From: a virus
Reading direction: 5' to 3' (one strand)
Length of the DNA: 64,000 bases
IMG/VR virus record: IMGVR_UViG_3300025545_000003
Span: 42,831 to 106,830 of that record
The notes below the pieces were generated by a model. The model ran no database searches. It saw only the letters and a list, made by a program, of their open reading frames with translations, and was not told where the DNA came from. The position numbers were made by a program, and so were the translations under genes. Numbering within the stretch: position 1 is the first letter of the stretch; each line of letters begins with the position of its first letter. Positions 24,594 through 38,738 of the stretch are shown in pieces.

Positions 24594-24959
24594 TGGTGGA
24601 GGTGCGGGGAATCGAACCCCGGTCCTAAGATGCCTACGCCAACGCACTACGCTCATTTCCCGTGTTTATCCCGCACGGGCAAGGTGCTTCGATCCTCAAC
24701 GCACATGCTGCTGTTAGTCATCGCCTTCAGGTAGCCGCCTGCCCGCTATCCTGAACGCCAACCCGTTTCTGCTGTAACCTCACGCCCCGAATCGGGTGCT
24801 CTGACGTGAGAATGAAGCACCAGCACAGTCTTTCGACTACGCTGCCGCCTGCATCGGAAGGGTCTCGTTGGCAATTAAGCCTTTGCCGTCTGTAACGCCC
24901 GACAGCACTCGGAACGAACGTTTAGCCTCGTACACCCCAGTCGAAACCAGTACACCCCC
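24594..24959 (-). ncRNA. ssrA: tmRNA; tag peptide (A)ANETLPMQAAA
   Basis: 5' GGGGGTGTACTGGTTTCGAC; 3' GGTTCGATTCCCCGCACCTCCACCA with G3-U pair; tag frame 24872-24837 after TTAATT. Confidence 0.95.
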
Positions 24960-26668: not shown

Positions 26669-26992
26669 ATGTCCAAGTTCACCGTCGACTGTTTCACCGA
26701 GAAGTCACTCCCGGAGCCGGGGTTCCCTGAGAACACCTACGAGGCGGCCACCGTGCTGGAGGCTGCGGCTGTTGTCCATAACTGCACCCGCAAGCAGGCC
26801 GGGATCAGGATGGTTCAGATCTGGATCGAAGAGCCGGACGACCGAGAGGCCGTCGACACGCTCAAGACGTGCCGGTGTGGGACGAAGGGATGCGATACAA
26901 AGCGCATTGACCCTGACGAGGTAGCGAAGGCGCTGGGGGCGGAGAAGGCCGTGAAGCCGAAGAACCTGCCCCGCAGGCCGGGGACACGGTAG
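26669..26992 (+). CDS. Hypothetical protein
   Basis: AGGAGG RBS. Confidence 0.6.
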   Translation: MSKFTVDCFTEKSLPEPGFPENTYEAATVLEAAAVVHNCTRKQAGIRMVQIWIEEPDDREAVDTLKTCRCGTKGCDTKRIDPDEVAKALGAEKAVKPKNLPRRPGTR

Positions 26993-27079
26993 GCGGAAGC
27001 GGAGGGAGTCGAACCCTCAAGGCCGTAAAGCTCGCCTGTTTTCAAGACAGGTGCCGTCGCCACGTCGGCTGGCGCTTCC
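26992..27079 (-). tRNA. tRNA-Ser(TGA)
   Basis: CCTGT-CTTGAAA-ACAGG; long variable arm; G73. Confidence 0.92.
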
Positions 27080-27101
27080 AAGTTGAACAGTAGGTCTTCG
27101 T

Positions 27102-27192
27102 TGGCGGAAGGAGGGGGAGTCGAACCCCCAAGGCGCTCATCACGCTCGACCACTTTCCAAGCGGCTGCCATCACCAATTGGCTTGCCCTTCC
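27102..27192 (-). tRNA. tRNA-Ser(GGA)
   Basis: GCCGC-TTGGAAA-GTGGT; GCCA end. Confidence 0.92.
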
Positions 27193-27196
27193 AAAG

Positions 27197-27283
27197 TGCG
27201 ACCGGAGGGATTCGAACCCTCACGCCAGTCATTGTTGACACTGGCCCCTCAAGCCAGCGCGTCTACCATTCCGCCACGGTCGC
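27197..27283 (-). tRNA. tRNA-Leu(GAG)
   Basis: CTGGC-TTGAGGG-GCCAG. Confidence 0.92.
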
Positions 27284-27288
27284 ATGAG

Positions 27289-27370
27289 TGCTGCCGGTGG
27301 GACTCGAACCCACACACCTCAAGGGCACGGGCCTCTCAGACCCGCATGTCTACCATTCCATCACGACAGC
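27289..27370 (-). tRNA. tRNA-Leu(GAG), second copy
   Basis: CGGGT-CTGAGAG-GCCCG. Confidence 0.9.
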
Positions 27371-27377
27371 ATAGAAA

Positions 27378-27492
27378 GCACCCCAGCACGTAGGGAACCA
27401 CGGGTTGGTTACCGCTGGCCGCCCACTCCTCCCAGAAGTGCTGCTTCTCTGTGGTCTTGGACACCCCTGATCTACAGCCCCGGCTGGGGTGC
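27378..27492. ncRNA. Unidentified structured RNA (~115 nt)
   Basis: Perfect 10-bp terminal helix GCACCCCAGC/GCTGGGGTGC filling the gap between two tRNAs. Confidence 0.5.
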
Positions 27493-27495
27493 CTT

Positions 27496-27585
27496 TGGCG
27501 GAAGGACGGGGAGTCGAACCCCGAAGGCCGGTTAAGGCTCGCTGGTTTTCGAAACCAGTGCAGTCGCCCATCTGCTTGCCCTTCC
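27496..27585 (-). tRNA. tRNA-Ser(CGA)
   Basis: CTGGT-TTCGAAA-ACCAG; GCCA end. Confidence 0.92.
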
Positions 27586-27586
27586 A

Positions 27587-27662
27587 TGGAGCGCTCGCCC
27601 GGACTTGAACCGGGGACCACCGGCTTCGGAGGCCGGGACTCTATCCACTGAGCTACGAGCGC
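27587..27662 (-). tRNA. tRNA-Arg(CCG)
   Basis: CCGGC-CTCCGAA-GCCGG; CCA end. Confidence 0.93.
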
Positions 27663-27665
27663 AAA

Positions 27666-27818
27666 GGTGGGGGAGGTAGGAATCGAACCTACAATGCCCT
27701 CTCGGGCGGTCTGCTTTACAGGCAGATGTCTATACCTTGCTGAAGTCGCAACAGAGTTCCCGACCGGGGTCAGGATAAGGTCGTCACAACGAGTAGCGTG
27801 ACTTTTGACCACTCCCCC
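27666..27818 (-). tRNA. tRNA-Tyr(GTA) with ~65-nt insertion in the D-loop
   Basis: GGGGGAG/CTCCCCC-A; TCTGC-CTGTAAA-GCAGA; 76 nt between D-stem strands GTC/GAC. Confidence 0.8.
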
Positions 27819-27822
27819 ATAG

Positions 27823-27895
27823 AGCCAACGACGGGAATCGAACCCGTAACCCCTTGCTTACCATGCAAGTGCTCTACCGTTGGAGCTACGTTGGC
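27823..27895 (-). tRNA. tRNA-Thr(GGT)
   Basis: CTTGC-ATGGTAA-GCAAG. Confidence 0.92.
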
Positions 27896-27913
27896 ATGCT
27901 TGAATCAGACAAG

Positions 27914-27985
27914 AGCCCAGTACCGGAGTCGAACCGATGTCAGCGGGTTACAAATCCGCTGCTCTGCCACTTGAGCTAACTGGGC
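27914..27985 (-). tRNA. tRNA-Thr(TGT)
   Basis: GCGGA-TTTGTAA-CCCGC. Confidence 0.9.
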
Positions 27986-28018
27986 AAATCAGGTGCTCTA
28001 CCGTTGAGCCACGCTAGC
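27986..28018 (-). pseudogene. 5' half of a tRNA (Thr-like) truncated in the anticodon loop
   Basis: GCTAGCGTGGCTCAACGGTAGAGCACCTGATTT abuts the next tRNA. Confidence 0.75.
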
Positions 28019-28022
28019 AAAG

Positions 28023-28094
28023 AGCCGAAGGTCGGAATCGAACCGACAACCTGCCGCTTACGAAACGGCTGCTCTACCATTGAGCTACATCGGC
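28023..28094 (-). tRNA. tRNA-Thr(CGT)
   Basis: GCCGT-TTCGTAA-GCGGC. Confidence 0.92.
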
Positions 28095-28149
28095 AAAGTG
28101 CGACCGGGGGGAGTCGAACCCCCACGCCTCAAAGGCACCGGATTCTAAG

Positions 28150-28229
28150 TGGCTGAGGTGGGAGTCGAACCCACACGCCCTAAGCGCCCGCCTCTAAAAC
28201 GGGTGCGTCTACCGTTCCGCCACTCAGCC
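28150..28229 (-). tRNA. tRNA-Leu(TAG), nested replacement copy
   Basis: GGCTGAG/CTCAGCC; CCCGT-TTTAGAG-GCGGG. Confidence 0.92.
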
Positions 28230-28724
28230 TTTTTCTTGTTTGGTCACGGAGGTCAACCCTTTGCTATTACACCACCCAGGTTGTTGGGAGTGGCAGTTAG
28301 GGCACAGGAATCGTAAGTTTTCAGGGCGGTTGTCTAACCAGTCTCGGTTGATGTGGTCCACCTGTAGCATGAGGGGTTTCCCGACCCACACTCCCTCGAT
28401 CCCACAAGATTCGCACGCATAGGGCCGCCCACTGTCAAGGAGAGCCCTCCGTAAGCGGTACGCTGCGGTACGCCTCCCTGTGTCCTTCTTTGACAGGGTA
28501 GTTAGCCACGGAGTCTTTCCCGGGCCTCCCTTATGGGCTGTTCCCTTGTTGGATCCTTGACCGTGGAAATGGACTGTGTCGAGTCCGTATTCCCGTACCT
28601 TACGGGTGATGTGCGTTTGTGTCCCGCCCGCCTGTTTCACCCCCAAATCTCGAAGCACGCCCGCCATGGAAGTGTTCTGTTGAACAAGTGGGGCTAGGAT
28701 CTCTTTTGTGTAACGTCGTCCCAT
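28224..28724 (-). CDS. HNH homing endonuclease
   Basis: CESCG...LQVDHIN...DNRPENLRFLCPNCHS. Confidence 0.92.
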   Translation of the reverse strand: MGRRYTKEILAPLVQQNTSMAGVLRDLGVKQAGGTQTHITRKVREYGLDTVHFHGQGSNKGTAHKGGPGKTPWLTTLSKKDTGRRTAAYRLRRALLDSGRPYACESCGIEGVWVGKPLMLQVDHINRDWLDNRPENLRFLCPNCHSQQPGWCNSKGLTSVTKQEKG

Positions 28725-28791
28725 ACACAGCTTACGGTATAGGCTAGCAACCGGAACCGGCGTGTCTACCGTTTCACCACGGTCGCAAAGG

Positions 28792-29635
28792 ATGACCACC
28801 CGTAGCCGGGATCCTGTTTTATGGACACATTCATCTAGTGGCCCCTACCCGTCCGCATAGCGCTGCTCACCCGCTCTTGGCCCAACCCCGATGCCGAGAG
28901 CGTTGCCCTGAAAAGAGCTTCTGCATTCCTTGGCGTGTAAGGCCGTGACGTTGGCAGAACAGATTGAGGGACGGGGTCACTTCGTGTTCAGCCCCGTCAG
29001 GAGAACGGACTTTGGGGTAGGGCTGCTTCTTCTTAGTGCGGCTGATCGCCGCCTTTTCCGCTTCCGTTGGGGAAGCCTTCCGACCACCCGATCCCACAGC
29101 GTTCTTATTGCCCCGCTGCAAAAGTGACAGGGCTTGCTTCGTTTCTTCTGTATGCTTGTAACCCAGGCTGTTGCCTGCTTCTGGGAGGATGTTGTACTTC
29201 TTGGCTTTCGGGGTCTTGTCCAACCACTCCTGTTCCTTCTCCAAGAGCTTGTCGTGGGCCGCCTGAACAAGCACAAAGAAGCAAATGTCCTCTTCACCCC
29301 TCTTGGCAAAGGCTCGTTGTAAGGGGGTGTTATGGTGGGTGCCTTTTCGAAGAAGCCTCCCATGTGCTGAGAACCTCTTGTAGAGATCCACTGCGGACCC
29401 GATGTAGAGCTTCCCCGAAGCCCTACTTCTGATGGCATAGACACCGCTCTTACCGTGTAGCGCAGAATAAGGGGTACCTTTCATGGAAGGGTCCAATTTC
29501 ATAGGCCAAAGATACCACGTTCCTGTTTGGGTTGCACCCTCGGAAGTGCGAACGGCCTACGGCCTCCTTCCTTCAGCAGTGGTGTCCCGAGCTTCCTCAC
29601 ATCCCTTGCGGGGTAGTGCGTGCCCTCAGTGGTCA
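28792..29635 (-). ncRNA. rnpB: Minimal RNase P RNA (~210 nt) interrupted by a GIY-YIG ORF
   Basis: GAGGAAGCTCGGGA (CR-I) pairs with ACAGGATCCCGGCTA (CR-V) as P4 with bulged U; P1 TGACCAC/GTGGTCA; P2 GGGCACG/TGTGTCC; AGATGAATG; GGGTAGG L15. Confidence 0.85.
28867..29502 (-). CDS. GIY-YIG homing endonuclease with NUMOD3-like motif (start may be 29484)
   Basis: SGVYAI...LYIGSA...R...E...YN; SLGYKHTEETK. Confidence 0.92.
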   Translation of the reverse strand: MKLDPSMKGTPYSALHGKSGVYAIRSRASGKLYIGSAVDLYKRFSAHGRLLRKGTHHNTPLQRAFAKRGEEDICFFVLVQAAHDKLLEKEQEWLDKTPKAKKYNILPEAGNSLGYKHTEETKQALSLLQRGNKNAVGSGGRKASPTEAEKAAISRTKKKQPYPKVRSPDGAEHEVTPSLNLFCQRHGLTRQGMQKLFSGQRSRHRGWAKSG

Positions 29636-29720
29636 TGGTGCCAGAGGGGGGACTCGAACCCCCACGCCTCAAGGACAGACGGTTTTGAACCGACCGCGTC
29701 TACCATTCCGCCACTCTGGC
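29636..29720 (-). tRNA. tRNA-Leu(CAA)
   Basis: GTCGG-TTCAAAA-CCGTC; ACCA end. Confidence 0.92.
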
Positions 29721-29728
29721 AAGTAAGT

Positions 29729-29817
29729 TGGTGGAGGAGGTGGGATTCGAACCCACTCACCGCAACGCGGACCAGATTTACAGTCTGGCGTGACTCTCCA
29801 ACTTCAACCGCTCCTCC
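29729..29817 (-). tRNA. tRNA-Tyr(GTA)
   Basis: CCAGA-CTGTAAA-TCTGG; ACCA end; atypical D arm. Confidence 0.88.
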
Positions 29818-29821
29818 AAAG

Positions 29822-29893
29822 TGGAAAGGGGTGGAATCGAACCACCGACACGGGGATTTTCAGTCCCCTGCTCTACCTCTGAGCTACCCCTCC
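29822..29893 (-). tRNA. tRNA-Phe(GAA)
   Basis: GGGGA-CTGAAAA-TCCCC. Confidence 0.93.
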
Positions 29894-30294
29894 ATGCGTT
29901 TCCAGTCCCCGAACTCCTCCTTGCCGCCCCTGCACCCCCAGTCCGAGTCGATGACCAGGCGGGACGAGATCCCGCCACGGGGCCGGAGGTCCGCTACGAG
30001 GCGCAACCGGGCCGGTTCATAGACCGCCACGAGATCCTCGTAGATGACGTTGATGAGGCGTTCGTAGGAGATCACCTTGGACCTGAAGGCCACCACGTAC
30101 TCCTTGAGTGCCTTCAGTTCGATGATCCAGTCCGCCGGGTAGAAGACCAACGTCAGGTGACCGAAGTCCGGTTGCTGTTTGACGCCCATGAACGTCAACT
30201 CCGGGATCTCCATCCTGATCTCGTACCCGTCTGGGTCGGGGTTCGGCAGCCTCTTCAGCTTGTCCTTCTCCGACCACTTGTCATGCTTGCCCAT
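29884..30294 (-). CDS. QueF-like T-fold protein lacking the catalytic Cys
   Basis: PELT...QPDF...ELKALK-x-Y...FR...SYE...PRGGI; no Cys at the EFTSLCP position. Confidence 0.85.
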   Translation of the reverse strand: MGKHDKWSEKDKLKRLPNPDPDGYEIRMEIPELTFMGVKQQPDFGHLTLVFYPADWIIELKALKEYVVAFRSKVISYERLINVIYEDLVAVYEPARLRLVADLRPRGGISSRLVIDSDWGCRGGKEEFGDWKRMEG

Positions 30295-30333
30295 GTCGTT
30301 CCCCCTTGTTGTCCGGGGAACTATACCGATCAG

Positions 30334-30407
30334 TGCCAAGGGGCGGGATCGAACCGCCGACACCCCGGATTTCACCCGAGTGCTCTACCTACCTGAGCTA
30401 CCTTGGC
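30334..30407 (-). tRNA. tRNA-Phe(GAA), second copy
   Basis: CTCGG-GTGAAAT-CCGGG. Confidence 0.88.
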
Positions 30408-30411
30408 AGAA

Positions 30412-30485
30412 GGCAGAGGTAGTGGGAATCGAACCCACCCGACGGTCGGTTTTGGAGACCAACCCGCTTACCCAGAGCCACCTCT
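30412..30485 (-). tRNA. tRNA-Trp(CCA)
   Basis: TTGGT-CTCCAAA-ACCGA; G73; short D arm. Confidence 0.85.
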
Positions 30486-30519
30486 ACAAGAATGTGCGGG
30501 GAATCGAACCGGGGCTTTG

Positions 30520-30975
30520 CTAGCGAATGAACTTGAGGGCTTGGGCGTTGACCATCTTCAGGATGTCACGGGGGGACATGGAGGCGAAGGAGGTCATCGA
30601 CATGGAGTGCGTGCTGGTTTCCTCGTCCTCGATCCCCTTTTCCTCTACATAGACGAACACCCACCACTGTACCTGGTTGCGTTGGAAGTCGGGGGTGAAG
30701 TACGCGATGACGTGGTCCTCACCCGGAGTCGAGGACTGGCTGGGGGAGGGGAGATTCGGGAAAGCGATCTCCACAGTCATCCCCTTCCTGTAAATCTCGC
30801 CCACATGGTCGGCCTGCGTGGCCTTGCCGACCTTCTTCATCCACTGGAAGAATGCCTTGTGGAACAGACCGATAAGGTCACCCGTTGCCGCCTCTTTCCG
30901 CAGAAGGGGCAGGATGTGCTTGCGGGTTTCAGGTACTTCATGGGCCAGTCTGACCAGTTCGCTTTTAAGATCCAT
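30520..30975 (-). CDS. Hypothetical, possibly virion-internal protein
   Basis: AGGAGG RBS; N-terminus LKSELVRLAHEVPETRKHILPLLRKEA. Confidence 0.65.
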   Translation of the reverse strand: MDLKSELVRLAHEVPETRKHILPLLRKEAATGDLIGLFHKAFFQWMKKVGKATQADHVGEIYRKGMTVEIAFPNLPSPSQSSTPGEDHVIAYFTPDFQRNQVQWWVFVYVEEKGIEDEETSTHSMSMTSFASMSPRDILKMVNAQALKFIR

Positions 30976-31017
30976 GGGGTCCTCCTGTGTCCCTAATGGA
31001 ACCTTATAGCCCAAGTA

Positions 31018-31102
31018 GGTGCCAGAGGGGGGACTCGAACCCCCACGCCTCAAGGATATCCGGGCTTAAACCGGATGCGGCTACCAGTTACGCCATCCCG
31101 GC
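31018..31102 (-). tRNA. tRNA-Leu(TAA)
   Basis: TCCGG-TTTAAGC-CCGGA; 3' half identical to that of Leu(CAA). Confidence 0.85.
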
Positions 31103-31111
31103 GTATGAAAG

Positions 31112-31197
31112 TGGATGATCAAGGAATCGAACCTTGCTGCCGCGTCAGCGGACCGGGGTTACAGCCCAGCGCAAGCACCAGCTTGACCGTATCATCC
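31112..31197 (-). tRNA. tRNA-Tyr(GTA) with atypical D arm
   Basis: GGATGAT/ATCATCC-A; CTGGG-CTGTAAC-CCCGG; D arm CAAGC-TGGT-GCTTG. Confidence 0.8.
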
Positions 31198-31200
31198 AGA

Positions 31201-31289
31201 GGCGGAGGGAGAGGGAGTCGAACCCTCAAGGCCGATTAAGGCTCGTCCGGTTAGCAACCGGGTGCAGTCACCGATCTGCTTGCCCCTCC
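31201..31289 (-). tRNA. tRNA-Ser(GCT)
   Basis: CCCGG-TTGCTAA-CCGGA. Confidence 0.92.
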
Positions 31290-31301
31290 GTGAATTGGAC
31301 C

Positions 31302-31410
31302 GGGTCGCTCTTATCGTCTTCCTGGGGCGTTGCCACCCCGCAGACGTTTATCCACGACCAACCGCTGTACAAGCGGCTGCGCTATCCCCCGAGGGGGAGC
31401 CCAACGACCC
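31302..31410 (-). ncRNA. Unidentified four-arm structured RNA (~110 nt)
   Basis: GGGTCGTT/AGCGACCC closing helix with three internal hairpins, one GNRA-capped. Confidence 0.55.
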
Positions 31411-31414
31411 AAAG

Positions 31415-31497
31415 TGCTGCTGAAAGGAGTCGAACCTTCACGCCCCGAAGGACACTTGGACCTGAACCAAGCGCGTCTACCATTCCGCCACAGCAGC
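31415..31497 (-). tRNA. tRNA-Leu(CAG)
   Basis: CTTGG-TTCAGGT-CCAAG. Confidence 0.93.
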
Positions 31498-32914: not shown

Positions 32915-34483
32915 ATGAAGAGCACGCCGAAACATATCAGGCACGGACTCACCGCCCGCAACCCCCTCCTCGAAGGAGCCCTCGCACTGGCCCGTGCGGT
33001 TGCCGTCACCTACGGTCCACATGGGCGTATCGCCTTGTTAGATAGATTCGCAGGGCTTCTCCCCACGAAAGATGGGGTCACAGTGGCGAGGGAGATCCAG
33101 TTGGAAGGCCCGAGGGCTCTCGGGGCGGACATCCTTAAGTACTCCTGCATAGCCCTGAATGATAAGTGCGGGGACGGAACAACCACCGCCGCCATCGTCA
33201 GCGCCGCCCTCCTTCGGGAAGGCCACAAGCGGATCGTGGCCGGGGTGGAACCGAGGACGGTTTGCAACGAGTTGCAAACCGCCTCCGAGAGAGCCATCGA
33301 GGCCATCCGTGAGATGTCCGTCCGGGCCGACAACCAGAAGGACCTGGATCACGTAGCCCGCATCGCCAGCAACGGAGACGATGACGTGGCCCGGTGCCTC
33401 GCTGAAGGTGCCATGGCCGTCGGCAAGGACGGGACGATCTCCATCGAGGACGGCTATGGCACGGAGACCGTGTTGGAGTACAAGGACGGCTTCGAGTGTG
33501 ACGCCCGCCTAGCCTCCCACCACTTCCAAGGCCCAGAGGGTGCCCTCAAGTTGGAAGGTGCCCTCGTGGCGGTGGTCAACCAGCCCATCCACCAGGTGAC
33601 AGACGTGGTCTCCCTGTTGGAGGAAGCCTCCCAGTGGCCCAACAACCCGCTGCTGATCTTCGCCCCCTCGTTCAGCGGGATGGTCAACATGACCATCGGC
33701 ATGAACATCAAGGCGTCGAACGTCACGGCTTACCCGGTGCTGGCTCCGGGCGTCCACGTCCAGAAGGTCGAGTACCTGAAGGACATCGCCGCCATGGCTG
33801 GGGCCGTGTTCATTGACCCGGAGGCGGGCCAGAGCGTTAGGAAGTGGCAGCCGGAGTGGTTCGGCTCCTTGCGCCGTGCGACCGTCGGCATGAAGTCCTC
33901 CCTGTTGGAAGGCTATGATGAGCCGGACAAGCAGGCAGCCCGTGACGCACGCATCCGGGAACTGGAGGGCTTGGAGCGCACTACCACCTCTGAGTTCGAC
34001 CTGGACAGGATCAAGGAGCGCAAGGCCAAGCTCGCCGACGGCTTCGTGATCCTACGGGTGGGCGGCATCACCGAGTCCGCTATGAAGGAACGCCGTGCCC
34101 GTGTGGAAGACGCCTTTGGAGCCGTCAGGGCGGCCCTCAGAGAGGGCCTGGTTCCCGGTGGCGGCACAGTGTACCTCCGGGCCGCCGAAGCGCTCACAGG
34201 GGAAGCACGGGGCACAGGGGGCGACATTCTCCGCAAAGCCCTCCAGGCCCCCGCACTGATGTTAGCTGGTAACGCGGGCCTCGACCCTCACGCTGTCCTG
34301 CACCAGATCGCTGAACACGATTCTCCGTGGGGCGGACTAGACGCCCGCACCGGACAAGTAAGGGACCTGTCACAGGACCCCAAGATAGTAGACCCCACAG
34401 CAGTAGCGGTTGAGGTGGTACGTGCCGCCGTGTCCGTTGCTGTAACTCTGCTGACGGTCGAGTGCTCCGTTGGCAAGGCTTAG
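32915..34483 (+). CDS. groEL: Divergent GroEL-like chaperonin
   Basis: TYGPHGR, TKDGVTVA, GDGTTT, RVGG, VPGGG, IVDP. Confidence 0.93.
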   Translation: MKSTPKHIRHGLTARNPLLEGALALARAVAVTYGPHGRIALLDRFAGLLPTKDGVTVAREIQLEGPRALGADILKYSCIALNDKCGDGTTTAAIVSAALLREGHKRIVAGVEPRTVCNELQTASERAIEAIREMSVRADNQKDLDHVARIASNGDDDVARCLAEGAMAVGKDGTISIEDGYGTETVLEYKDGFECDARLASHHFQGPEGALKLEGALVAVVNQPIHQVTDVVSLLEEASQWPNNPLLIFAPSFSGMVNMTIGMNIKASNVTAYPVLAPGVHVQKVEYLKDIAAMAGAVFIDPEAGQSVRKWQPEWFGSLRRATVGMKSSLLEGYDEPDKQAARDARIRELEGLERTTTSEFDLDRIKERKAKLADGFVILRVGGITESAMKERRARVEDAFGAVRAALREGLVPGGGTVYLRAAEALTGEARGTGGDILRKALQAPALMLAGNAGLDPHAVLHQIAEHDSPWGGLDARTGQVRDLSQDPKIVDPTAVAVEVVRAAVSVAVTLLTVECSVGKA

Positions 34484-35780: not shown

Positions 35781-36230
35781 ATGCCCCAAGGCAAACTGTT
35801 CAAGATGGCGAGTACGCTCGACGACGCCGTTCTTCGGACTGCCGCACAGGACGAAGATGCACGACGTTTCCTGCTTGCTCTCCACCGGCAGGCCAAGGGC
35901 TGGGACAAGCTCCCGAAGGGCTGGACGCAGGAGAGCGTCAAGAAGTTCTGGTCGTCCCTGACCGGGGACGTGAAGCACAAGGTTACGAAGTGCATCAAGG
36001 AGATGGACGGGAAGTTCGACGACCCTGGTGCCTTCTGCGCTTCCCTGGCCGACATGGTGACCCCCGGCTGGCGCACCAAGAAGACCGCCTTCAACAAGTA
36101 CAACGCCCCCGAGGTGCTGGCCCAACTGTTCAAGGCCCTTTCCGCCGCCGGGTTGGATGACGCTGTGGCGAACCTCCGGCAACGGAAGGTCCCGCAGATC
36201 GTGGACAAGGCATGGAGGGATCGAGGGTGA
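35781..36230 (+). CDS. Hypothetical, possibly virion protein
   Basis: GGAGGT RBS; K/R-x-A motifs. Confidence 0.65.
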   Translation: MPQGKLFKMASTLDDAVLRTAAQDEDARRFLLALHRQAKGWDKLPKGWTQESVKKFWSSLTGDVKHKVTKCIKEMDGKFDDPGAFCASLADMVTPGWRTKKTAFNKYNAPEVLAQLFKALSAAGLDDAVANLRQRKVPQIVDKAWRDRG

Positions 36231-37150
36231 ACAAGCAAGCCGCAGCAGCCGTAGACCCCGTCCGCCAGCGGACTCAGTACACCTGCACTAAAGGGATCAA
36301 CTGGGACGATGCCCCTTTGGGCAAATTGTCTGATGGTGATGTGGCTCGCATGTATAAGGTCGCCCGTCCTGTGGTCTGTAATGCCCGCAATCGAAGAGGC
36401 ATCCCGCCCTTCACGTCACGGTATGTAAATGTGGTGTGGGATGATGTTCCTCTTGGTGGTTTTCCAGATGCTGTGCTGGCAAAGGAGCTTGGAGTGTCCG
36501 AGCCCACGGTTTCACGGCATCGTAACCAGAAAGGCATATGCCCCTTCCAGTCAAGGTTCATCACCACTGAGGGGGAGGCTGCACAAAGCTACCCAGAAGC
36601 CCTCATCGATCTTTTTTGGCATGAACAGGACATTGCACATCAATTCCAAGTCCCAATCGGCCCCTACGTGGCTGATTGGGTGGTGGGAAACACCGTAGTT
36701 GAGTACGCAGGGTTCATCGAAAGCCGAACTTTTGGGGACAGGTACCGGGAGAGGCTCGCTGTCAAGGTCTCCTTCTACAAGTCGCAGGGGTGGCATGTGC
36801 AGGTCATCTACCCCAATGACCTGGAATCTTTCAAGCCCAAAGGTTCGCCTGAAATGACACGGGACATCATCTCAGGAGGTGTTAATTGGTCAGGACAACC
36901 TCTCGGGAAAATGACGGACATGGATCTTGCATCTCGTCTGGGTGTCGGACAGACGACGGTGTCCCGATGGAGAAACATCTTTGGGATTGCCCCCTACAAG
37001 AAAAAGAAGCGGGACTGGACTCATGAGCCTCTCGGAAAGATGCCCGACCCGGCACTTGCAGCTCGTTTAGGGGTGAGCAAAGAAACTGTCCGACGTGCTC
37101 GTGTCATGTTCGGGATCCCGTCTTACAGGAGTGTCTGTCATGCAGCGTGA
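36227..37150 (+). mobile_element. Putative homing endonuclease (PD-(D/E)xK/Vsr-like core flanked by four HTH repeats) fused to the old peptidase N-terminus
   Basis: YVADW...VVEYAG core; repeats W-x3-PLG-x2-D-x2-LA-x2-LGV; low GC; starts with a copy of the peptidase N-terminus. Confidence 0.7.
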
Positions 37151-38738
37151 GGCCAAAGCAAACGTGACCCCTGTAAGGCAACGCACTCAATTTTCGTGCA
37201 TGAGTTGCTCCATGATGATGTGCCTCAAGGCCAACGGGGTCGACACGAACGAGGACGAGGTGAACCGGGTCATGGGTGCCAAGCCCATGCAGGGTGCCGC
37301 CTGGGAGGAAGCCCTGGCCGCGGCCCAGCACTACGGCATGCGGGCTACCCTCACCGTTCCAGCTACCGTCCAGCAGTTGAAGAAGTGGACTGACCGGGGC
37401 GTCCCCGTGATGATCGCTTGGAACCCCGAAGGCCGGGACTGGTCCCACGCCTCTGTGGTGTTCGACGTGGACGAGGACCTCAACGTCTACGTGGCCGACC
37501 CCAACATCCCGGACCCCGATGAGACCGTCCGCATCGTTCCCAAGGCCGAGTTCTACGGCAAGTGGTACGAGAAGTGGCCGAACTACCTCGTGCGTCGGCC
37601 CGCGATGGCCGTCGAGCGTGAGGTGTCCCCCGAGGGTCGCCAGATGGTCGCCAGCAAGGTGCCCGCCGACGCTGAGCCCGTGAAGGGCACCAAGTTCTTC
37701 GTCTCGAAGAAGCCCTCGAAGAGCCCCTACCGTGGCCAGCCTGAGCAGTTCAAAATCTTCAACGAGCACGGCGGCGTGGTCGGGGGATATCCCGACCGGG
37801 GTGAAGCCATCGCCAAGGCCAAGAAGATGAAGACGGCCAAGACCCTCATGCAGGTCAAAGTGAAAAACAAGGCCCCTCGTGACCCCGGCGCTGCACGCCA
37901 CGGGAAGCCGGGCGGAGCCGCAGGCGCTCACCACAACCGCGACCGCGACGTGTCCAAAGGGCGGAGCCGCAAGCCCAAGCACAAGAAGCCGATGGTGGAG
38001 CGTGAGGCGTCCCTGTTGGAGAAGCTGGCCCGGATCGACGAGAAGGACATGAACCGGGCCGCCCAACTCCTCCAGTACATGACTGAGAAGGAAGCGATGA
38101 AGCACCTCGTGAAGCAGGGGATGCATCGTCAAAACGCTTTCTTGGCGCTTAAGGCGGGCAAGATCCTCAACAAGGACCATAAGGGGCGCCTCGCCGCTTC
38201 CAAAGAGGCAGGCTACAAGGGGAACCCAGATGGCAAGGACATCTACCCAAACGAGATCGAACACGGGTACGGTGAGCCCATCGCTGGAGGAACTGACGTG
38301 ATGCGACAACTACAGAACAAGCTCATCCATGAACAGGGTGATGCAGTACCACAGCGGCCCGAGAGCCCCCGGATGGCCAGTCAGCTTTCCCTCTCCTCTG
38401 GTAAACCAGACCCCAAGATGACGGCTGCATTGAAGCAACGAGCCGAAAGGAAATTGCTCCGTTCCCGTAGCAAAGGTGATTTTGAGGGGGCATTGATGTC
38501 GGCTGGTTTCCACGCGAGGAAACACAGCACGACCGCCTTCGTCTATGCAGGCAACAGCTACGGGGCCGGTGTGTGGCGTGTCTCTTTCAAGGCAGGGGAA
38601 TACCTGAACCCCATCAACAACACAGGGGTCCGGGTACTGTCAGTGACCCCAGACCTCGACGTGACGGTCTTCCAAATCAAACAACGCCCCAGGATGGCCG
38701 CCCGTGTGGCCCACCTGTACCTCAAGAGGAGCCAGTAA
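37140..38738 (+). CDS. C39-like cysteine peptidase with long C-terminal extension
   Basis: Q-x5-C, WSHASVV, ADPN catalytic pattern. Confidence 0.75.
   Translation: MQREAKANVTPVRQRTQFSCMSCSMMMCLKANGVDTNEDEVNRVMGAKPMQGAAWEEALAAAQHYGMRATLTVPATVQQLKKWTDRGVPVMIAWNPEGRDWSHASVVFDVDEDLNVYVADPNIPDPDETVRIVPKAEFYGKWYEKWPNYLVRRPAMAVEREVSPEGRQMVASKVPADAEPVKGTKFFVSKKPSKSPYRGQPEQFKIFNEHGGVVGGYPDRGEAIAKAKKMKTAKTLMQVKVKNKAPRDPGAARHGKPGGAAGAHHNRDRDVSKGRSRKPKHKKPMVEREASLLEKLARIDEKDMNRAAQLLQYMTEKEAMKHLVKQGMHRQNAFLALKAGKILNKDHKGRLAASKEAGYKGNPDGKDIYPNEIEHGYGEPIAGGTDVMRQLQNKLIHEQGDAVPQRPESPRMASQLSLSSGKPDPKMTAALKQRAERKLLRSRSKGDFEGALMSAGFHARKHSTTAFVYAGNSYGAGVWRVSFKAGEYLNPINNTGVRVLSVTPDLDVTVFQIKQRPRMAARVAHLYLKRSQ

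Follow-up and report, generated by a model that had tools for sequence, protein, structure and literature searches.

Free-standing phage endonucleases, including SegF and SegB of T4 and others, spread by intronless homing. The received view is that selfish nucleases can enter essential genes safely only within introns or inteins and otherwise stay between genes. In fungal mitochondria, however, endonuclease open reading frames (mORFs) have entered atp6, atp9, cox2 and nad3 of Glomus without an intron, supplying a divergent C-terminus, which the gene now expresses, and displacing the native one; an Allomyces macrogynus atp6 case is cited in the same paper (PMC3630166). The EDxHD homing endonuclease family, which includes I-Bth0305I (PDB 3r3p), is described in a second paper, in which Hef is named as a Vsr-like member (PMC3239194). 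Here we analyze a stretch of 64,000 nucleotides (the window) of the IMG/VR virus record IMGVR_UViG_3300025545_000003, in which an open reading frame (ORF) for a putative nuclease interrupts the 5′ end of a C39-like peptidase gene. We consider it likely that this ORF is a homing endonuclease gene of the free-standing kind and that its target, in a clade of huge marine phages, is the first codons of the peptidase gene.

The locus can be compared with each of these systems. As with the mORFs, an intronless endonuclease ORF has entered a protein-coding gene and brought a divergent version of one gene end, which is apparently used with the gene, and the native end persists as a displaced duplicate; the carried version has diverged in DNA although its protein sequence is conserved, and the ORF may be in phase with the host gene. 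Unlike the mORFs, which replace the 3′ end, the phage element replaces the 5′ end, and it is the nuclease rather than the host gene that inherits the native start codon and leader. In addition, the host is a phage and not a mitochondrion, and the predicted nuclease is Vsr-like with helix-turn-helix (HTH) repeats rather than of the LAGLIDADG or GIY-YIG type. The element is the 5′ mirror image of the gene-end-replacing type of mORF. With phage intronless homing it shares a free-standing nuclease gene beside the targeted gene, co-inheritance of flanking donor sequence, and a linked allele that appears to differ at the presumed target; one related locus, L013, has exactly the plain arrangement of such systems. 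The window and most relatives depart from it in that a 5′ fragment of the recipient gene is kept and translationally fused to the nuclease, and the element lies inside a gene rather than between genes. I-Bth0305I is likewise phage-borne and joins a Vsr-like catalytic domain to HTH/NUMOD-type DNA-binding modules, but its gene lies within a group I intron, HTH modules occur only at its N-terminus, and it has no significant sequence similarity to the window nuclease, which therefore cannot be assigned to the EDxHD family at the sequence level.

The interrupted peptidase gene and its insertion-free alleles

The peptidase coding sequence begins twice on the + strand. The native first 20 codons (36227-36286), which extend from a GTG at 36227 to the catalytic Cys codon TGC (36284-36286) and read MNKQAAAAVDPVRQRTQYTC, are preceded by GGAGG 8 nt upstream and now provide the start codon and leader of the nuclease. 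They are fused in frame to the body of the nuclease ORF (residues 21-307 plus stop, 36287-37150), so that 287 further codons lead to a TGA at 37148-37150 and the whole ORF comprises 307 codons (36227-37150). The peptidase restarts in a different frame at an ATG (37140), which gives an 11-nt overlap between the nuclease stop and the peptidase start. A ribosome-binding site, AGGAG (37127-37131), can be read directly within the 3′ end of the nuclease ORF and ends 8 nt ahead of this ATG. The replacement first 20 codons (37140-37199), MQREAKANVTPVRQRTQFSC, also end at a TGC Cys codon (37197-37199); they are spelled AGG-CAA...CAA-TTT-TCG and encode Phe in place of Tyr18 and Ser in place of Thr19. 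The restarted ORF has 532 codons, and its remainder (residues 21-532 plus stop, 37200-38738) is native sequence from just past the Cys codon. A preliminary description of the window had reported both 20-codon copies, their shared end point at the catalytic Cys codon and the overlap of the peptidase start with the nuclease stop, and each of these features is read directly from the DNA.

The two copies agree at 12 of 20 residues and 34 of 60 bases (57%). Within their last 10 codons, 8 residues are identical, and 6 of these 8 are encoded by a different codon. The G+C content is 0.54 across the inserted ORF versus 0.60 and 0.62 in the flanks, and a manual tally of the codons puts G+C at third codon positions at 55% in the downstream copy versus 75% in the upstream copy. 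The contrast in composition drawn in the preliminary description therefore has the right direction, but calling the downstream codons AT-rich overstates it. The peptidase ORF matches Pfam Peptidase_C39_2 (PF13529) over residues 8-122 (5e-6; 27.5 bits versus a cut-off of 24), and all peptidase homologues retain Cys20 and the WSHAS and ADPN motifs. Because Gln14, Cys20 and the His and Asp motifs are retained, the peptidase should be functional.

Scanning viral contigs with the peptidase identified six distinct uninterrupted genes (L002, L004, L005, L007, L008 and L009), so that the insertion-free alleles anticipated earlier do exist and could be aligned. In all six, QY(T/S/N)C is followed directly by M (V in L005), and their peptidase domains are 48-78% identical to that of the window. 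Start codons occupy an equal position in L005, L008, L009, L012 and L013, and in the first three of these they lie 20 codons before the post-Cys residue. The 20-codon length of the two copies is not a coincidence, because in this peptidase family the start codon natively lies that far from the catalytic Cys. Over their last 30 nt, the upstream copy matches the insertion-free alleles at 22-27 positions and the downstream copy at 16-21. The upstream copy is thus the host-like one and, as shown below, the downstream copy is linked to the nuclease, in agreement with the proposal that the original translation start has been taken over. Occupancy of this one conserved site is patchy, with six empty and, counting the window, nine filled loci. 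Efforts to find an empty allele of the same species gave no match to the exact 20-nt reconstructed empty junction in IMG/VR, and a degenerate search of IMG/VR for QY/F-x-C-MSCSMMMC matched the L009 contig only. In Logan contigs from three seawater DNA runs both junctions are bridged as filled, with no insert-skipping joint, at a depth too low to show absence.

Nuclease homologues at the same site and the carried 5′ end

Homologues of the nuclease directly precede the same peptidase gene in eight distinct loci besides the window (L012, L013, L014, L020, L021, L022, L025 and L026/27, the last counted as one). The L-numbered loci are viral contig DNA, and the junctions of P0003, P0006, P0009, P0011 and P0014 were read from protein sequences only. 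This recurrent association with the 5′ end of the peptidase gene is the strongest evidence that the ORF is a homing endonuclease gene. The point of joining varies, however. Insertion after the Cys codon, as claimed in the preliminary description, is found in the window and in P0003 (TGC/ACT AAA GGG, the slash marking the joint), where the codon is joined to the linker before the second ancestral repeat. In relatives the nuclease is joined after peptidase codon 11 (L014), 17 (L020) or 18 (P0006), after approximately 44 codons (P0014), or inside the Cys codon (L012, L022 and P0011; in the first two as TAC TCN TG/G, with the leader joined to the first HTH repeat). Nor is there a fusion in every relative. 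In L013 the nuclease starts at a codon of its own (MPIDWDTQPLG), and the gene is simply free-standing, with no remnant; likewise, no remnant of the recipient 5′ end is seen in L021. The remaining loci all keep one. In L020 the 17 native codons form an out-of-frame leader that meets the nuclease's own ATG in an ATGA overlap. There are at least six junction types in all, four of them within 10 nt of the Cys codon, a pattern that accords better with repeated break-and-join events near this codon than with a single accident. Moreover, where a remnant is visible in the DNA, the junction is in frame at six loci and the one out-of-frame case has a nuclease with its own start codon, perhaps implying that the junctions that survive are those that keep the nuclease translatable.

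The copies of the peptidase 5′ end that are linked to a nuclease also share a spelling. Of the nuclease-linked copies, which share descent, 8 of 9 encode Gln14 by CAA, whereas 9 of 10 unlinked or residual copies use CAG. The AGG codon for Arg13 occurs in three linked and zero unlinked copies, and residue 18, which is Phe in five of the linked copies, is Tyr in all unlinked copies that reach it. Linked copies are more variable at codons 12, 15, 18 and 19, with residues 12 and 15 varying mostly among them. The upstream copy of the window has the unlinked spelling, CGN-CAG...CAG-TAY, and the downstream copy shares 49 of 60 nt with its linked counterpart in L012 and 34 of 60 with the upstream copy. 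Relationships change abruptly at the Cys codon. Before it, the downstream copy matches the L012 linked copy at 49 of 60 nt versus 34 of 60 for the nuclease-free L009, and in the 15 codons after it the window is 74% identical to L009 versus 57% to L012; the residues MSCSMMMC that follow the Cys occur elsewhere in IMG/VR only in the L009 contig. Because this switch is sharp, the sequence on either side of the 913-bp insert (36287-37199) is native as far as the Cys codon. Beyond the first 15 codons, sliding comparison along the peptidase body did not reveal a clean boundary of a co-conversion tract. The shared spelling of the linked copies indicates that this 5′ end travels with the nuclease. The preliminary description was right that a replacement 5′ end is supplied with the nuclease, but this end is better seen as the 5′ end of a donor allele carried along than as one rebuilt in place.

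Predicted fold of the nuclease and alternative explanations

The nuclease ORF has four HTH repeats, which flank a core of about 105 residues in two pairs. Repeats 1 and 2 (residues 24-62 and 69-107; 36296-36547) and repeats 3 and 4 (residues 219-257 and 262-300; 36881-37126) were delimited from Pfam HTH matches, those of the first pair being to HTH_23 (3e-13) and HTH_17 (6e-12), and from an alignment of the repeats. They are approximately 39 residues long, have the form W-x3-PLG-x3-D-x2-LA-x2-LGV-x3-TV-x-R-x-R-x3-GI-x-P-F/Y, and are presumed to be DNA-binding modules. Helix-turn-helix families are the only Pfam matches of the ORF, and the core (residues ~110-215; 36554-36871) has no Pfam, PHROG or PDB match by sequence. 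An AlphaFold2 model of the core is a confident alpha/beta structure with a predicted local distance difference test (pLDDT) score of 89.2. Its best Foldseek match in the PDB is the catalytic domain of I-Bth0305I (3r3p_B; probability 1.00, E 2e-3, template modeling scores 0.51/0.60), followed by NGO0050 (3hrl) and then Vsr (1cw0). VIA-align, which is independent of Foldseek, gives 3r3p a Z score of 8.1 (root-mean-square deviation 3.4 Å over 83 residues), Vsr 7.7, TnsA 7.6 and 3hrl 7.3, and all further entries down to Z ~5.5 are restriction-endonuclease-like folds. The top two VIA-align entries (Z 9.9 and 8.5), above 3r3p, are mitoribosomal proteins, which we take to be RAP-domain proteins (Vsr-like). 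Although these scores are middling, the core is predicted to have a Vsr-like PD-(D/E)xK nuclease fold, as the preliminary description had supposed for this ORF. E124, D128, H138, D150, E159 and Y173 are invariant in the 44 homologues that cover the core; the first five are candidates for the composite EDxHD catalytic residues. Searches of PDB sequences with phmmer and with a profile of the 44 sequences did not match 3r3p, the best nuclease match being 3hrl (E 0.23).

An all-against-one HMMER search returned 2,103 relatives of the nuclease at E ≤ 0.001, many of which share the HTH repeats alone; a single-protein scan of the viral contigs gave no match, and relatives there were found by alignment-based scans. 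The number of N-terminal HTH repeats across the family ranges from 1 to more than 6. In some members (L020 (2451-2520), P0008, P0024, P0025, L018/L019, L021 and L025) a Cys-rich tail (CxxC...CxxC, for example CTGCGRHFGS...CDVCWRR) replaces the two C-terminal HTH repeats. DNA-binding modules thus appear to be shuffled around a constant nuclease core. A distant relative in L028 (2222-4274) directly precedes a different gene, at which a duplicated gene end is not visible; judged by eye, the N-terminus of the downstream product presumably resembles that of a tRNA nucleotidyltransferase or poly(A) polymerase, and the family may also target other genes. Finally, P0001, from a 1.9-kb metagenome contig, is 100% identical to the product of window positions 36227-37147 over 303 residues and starts with MKTLT in place of the MNKQ of the window, which reflects either another upstream flank beside the same cassette or an assembly end effect.

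Several observations weigh against a homing endonuclease. The QYTC/TKG junction of the window is also that of P0003, the nuclease of which is only ~70% identical, so that this fusion can persist for a long time and may be old and vertically inherited rather than a sign of recent movement. The empty alleles derive from relatives, at the distances given above, rather than from the same species, and the core lacks a significant sequence match to nuclease families, its assignment being a predicted fold. Moreover, L025 (linked, CAG) and L008 (unlinked, CAA) deviate from the Gln14 pattern, and the shared descent of the linked copies means that the CAA and CAG counts are not independent trials. The recoding could also be mere divergence of the donor lineage and not the result of selection for immunity. 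An old, immobile relic, vertically inherited and possibly domesticated as a DNA-binding regulator or as a weapon against competing phages, might explain the locus, with the two 5′ copies differing by drift. Support for this idea comes from the P0003 junction, from the presence of the identical protein in 51 contigs from many seawater samples with no empty form among the contigs examined, and from the label "CsgD family transcriptional regulator" that one source gives to a relative. The ORF is intact, however, with its conserved acidic and His residues retained, and its G+C content remains lower than that of the host. In addition, the variety of junction types at one site argues for repeated entry, and presence and absence are patchy across related phages. 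On balance, we regard a relic as unlikely.

In a second alternative, the peptidase 5′ end was duplicated or rearranged locally around the gene of an unrelated HTH protein, and no nuclease drove any mobility. This would be in keeping with the dominance of HTH domains among the family matches and with the failure of sequence searches to match any nuclease family. Such an event would be expected to leave near-identical copies rather than the 57% identity observed. Moreover, the downstream copy groups with the nuclease-linked copies of other phages, the core is predicted to fold like the Vsr and I-Bth0305I nucleases, and the same gene is found at the same site in eight other loci, and we consider this explanation very improbable. 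A degenerate intron or intein, its splicing parts lost or unrecognized, is the least credible alternative. Although the insertion adjoins a catalytic Cys codon, a typical location for such elements, no Rfam intron is matched at E values up to 1, and the ORF has a stop codon. The peptidase continues in a different frame, behind a ribosome-binding site and an ATG of its own, and splicing would be superfluous because the 5′ end is present in a complete second copy, all of which agrees with the absence of an intron or intein in the preliminary description.

Proposed route of entry, genomic setting and significance

For the homing endonuclease gene that we favor, we infer cleavage, the position of the cut, the immunity of the recoded copy, the route of repair and current mobility from the sequence comparisons above. 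The nuclease would cut nuclease-free alleles near the catalytic Cys codon, and the break would be repaired from a nuclease-carrying genome, with the right end recombining inside the peptidase gene and synthesis copying the 5′ end of the donor together with the nuclease gene. Because the sequence 5′ of the peptidase varies between phages, the left end would have little or no homology beyond the nuclease gene and would be joined without homology and directly to a 5′ portion of the nuclease ORF. As a result, the recipient's start codon and first 20 codons would drive translation of the nuclease, and the ribosome-binding site and first 20 codons of the donor would restart the peptidase, which would be complete without RNA or protein splicing. 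The ribosome-binding site, ATG and intact frame suggest that the substitute 5′ end is expressed. The recoded 5′ end is probably resistant to cleavage, since the association of the changed codons with the nuclease suggests that they abolish cutting. A 6+6 bp inverted repeat, GTCCGC-CA-GCGGAC (codons 12-16 of the window upstream copy and of L012), was considered as the recognition site and rejected because other empty alleles retain only part of it. More tentatively, the retained 5′ fragment might make the cassette self-sufficient when combined with the recoded copy, by giving the nuclease a promoter-independent start and the cassette a short left homology arm of the same kind as the target, so that the cassette could home precisely into any peptidase-bearing phage regardless of what lies upstream; we rate this possibility well below the homing endonuclease assignment itself.

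The gene upstream of the nuclease (35781-36230, + strand) encodes 149 amino acids, belongs to no family, and has a TGA that overlaps the GTG start at 36227 (GTGA, 36227-36230). Its homologues precede the peptidase region in L012, L009 and L026 and differ in length, with 149 codons in the window, 287 in L026 and 654 in L012 (1033-2997); DNA immediately 5′ of the peptidase is structurally variable across related phages. A scan of the + strand across the upstream gene, nuclease and peptidase gave no sigma-70-like promoter and no terminator, and for this reason the three genes are probably co-transcribed, with the nuclease riding on the transcript as well as the start codon of its host gene. In a marine metatranscriptome run, two 151-nt contigs match the interior of the nuclease ORF exactly (window 36602-36752 and 36856-37006). 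These are a weak hint of nuclease transcription, too little for a claim, and DNA carry-over is possible.

The source record is 106.8 kb long and its completeness is estimated at only ~20%, which implies that the genome is that of a huge phage; the phage has been recovered from many seawater metagenomes. The record contains a single copy of the nuclease. The locus is part of a row of + strand genes that also encodes a GroEL-like chaperonin (522 amino acids; window 32915-34483), which lies upstream and is syntenic in L002, L007 and L008. A block of tRNA genes and a phage-borne tmRNA gene (window 24594-24959, - strand; tag peptide ANETLPMQAAA) precede the region. The window has 22 tRNA genes in two blocks (192-2088 and 26992-31497), with same-anticodon duplicates (two Phe-gaa and two Leu-gag) and some inter-tRNA gaps of 440-1400 bp.

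The window and its relatives represent a third route in phages besides entry within introns or inteins and residence between genes, namely to enter coding sequence and carry a substitute for the severed part. This route was already known for the 3′ ends of genes in fungal mitochondria, and here it operates at a 5′ end, where the translation start of the host gene is captured. The filled, empty and differently joined alleles offer a ready test system for an uncharacterized family of Vsr-like nucleases, the tandem HTH modules of which might be re-targetable. If the cassette is indeed self-sufficient, cutting a gene and bringing a substitute would be a general route by which nucleases colonize essential genes without splicing.

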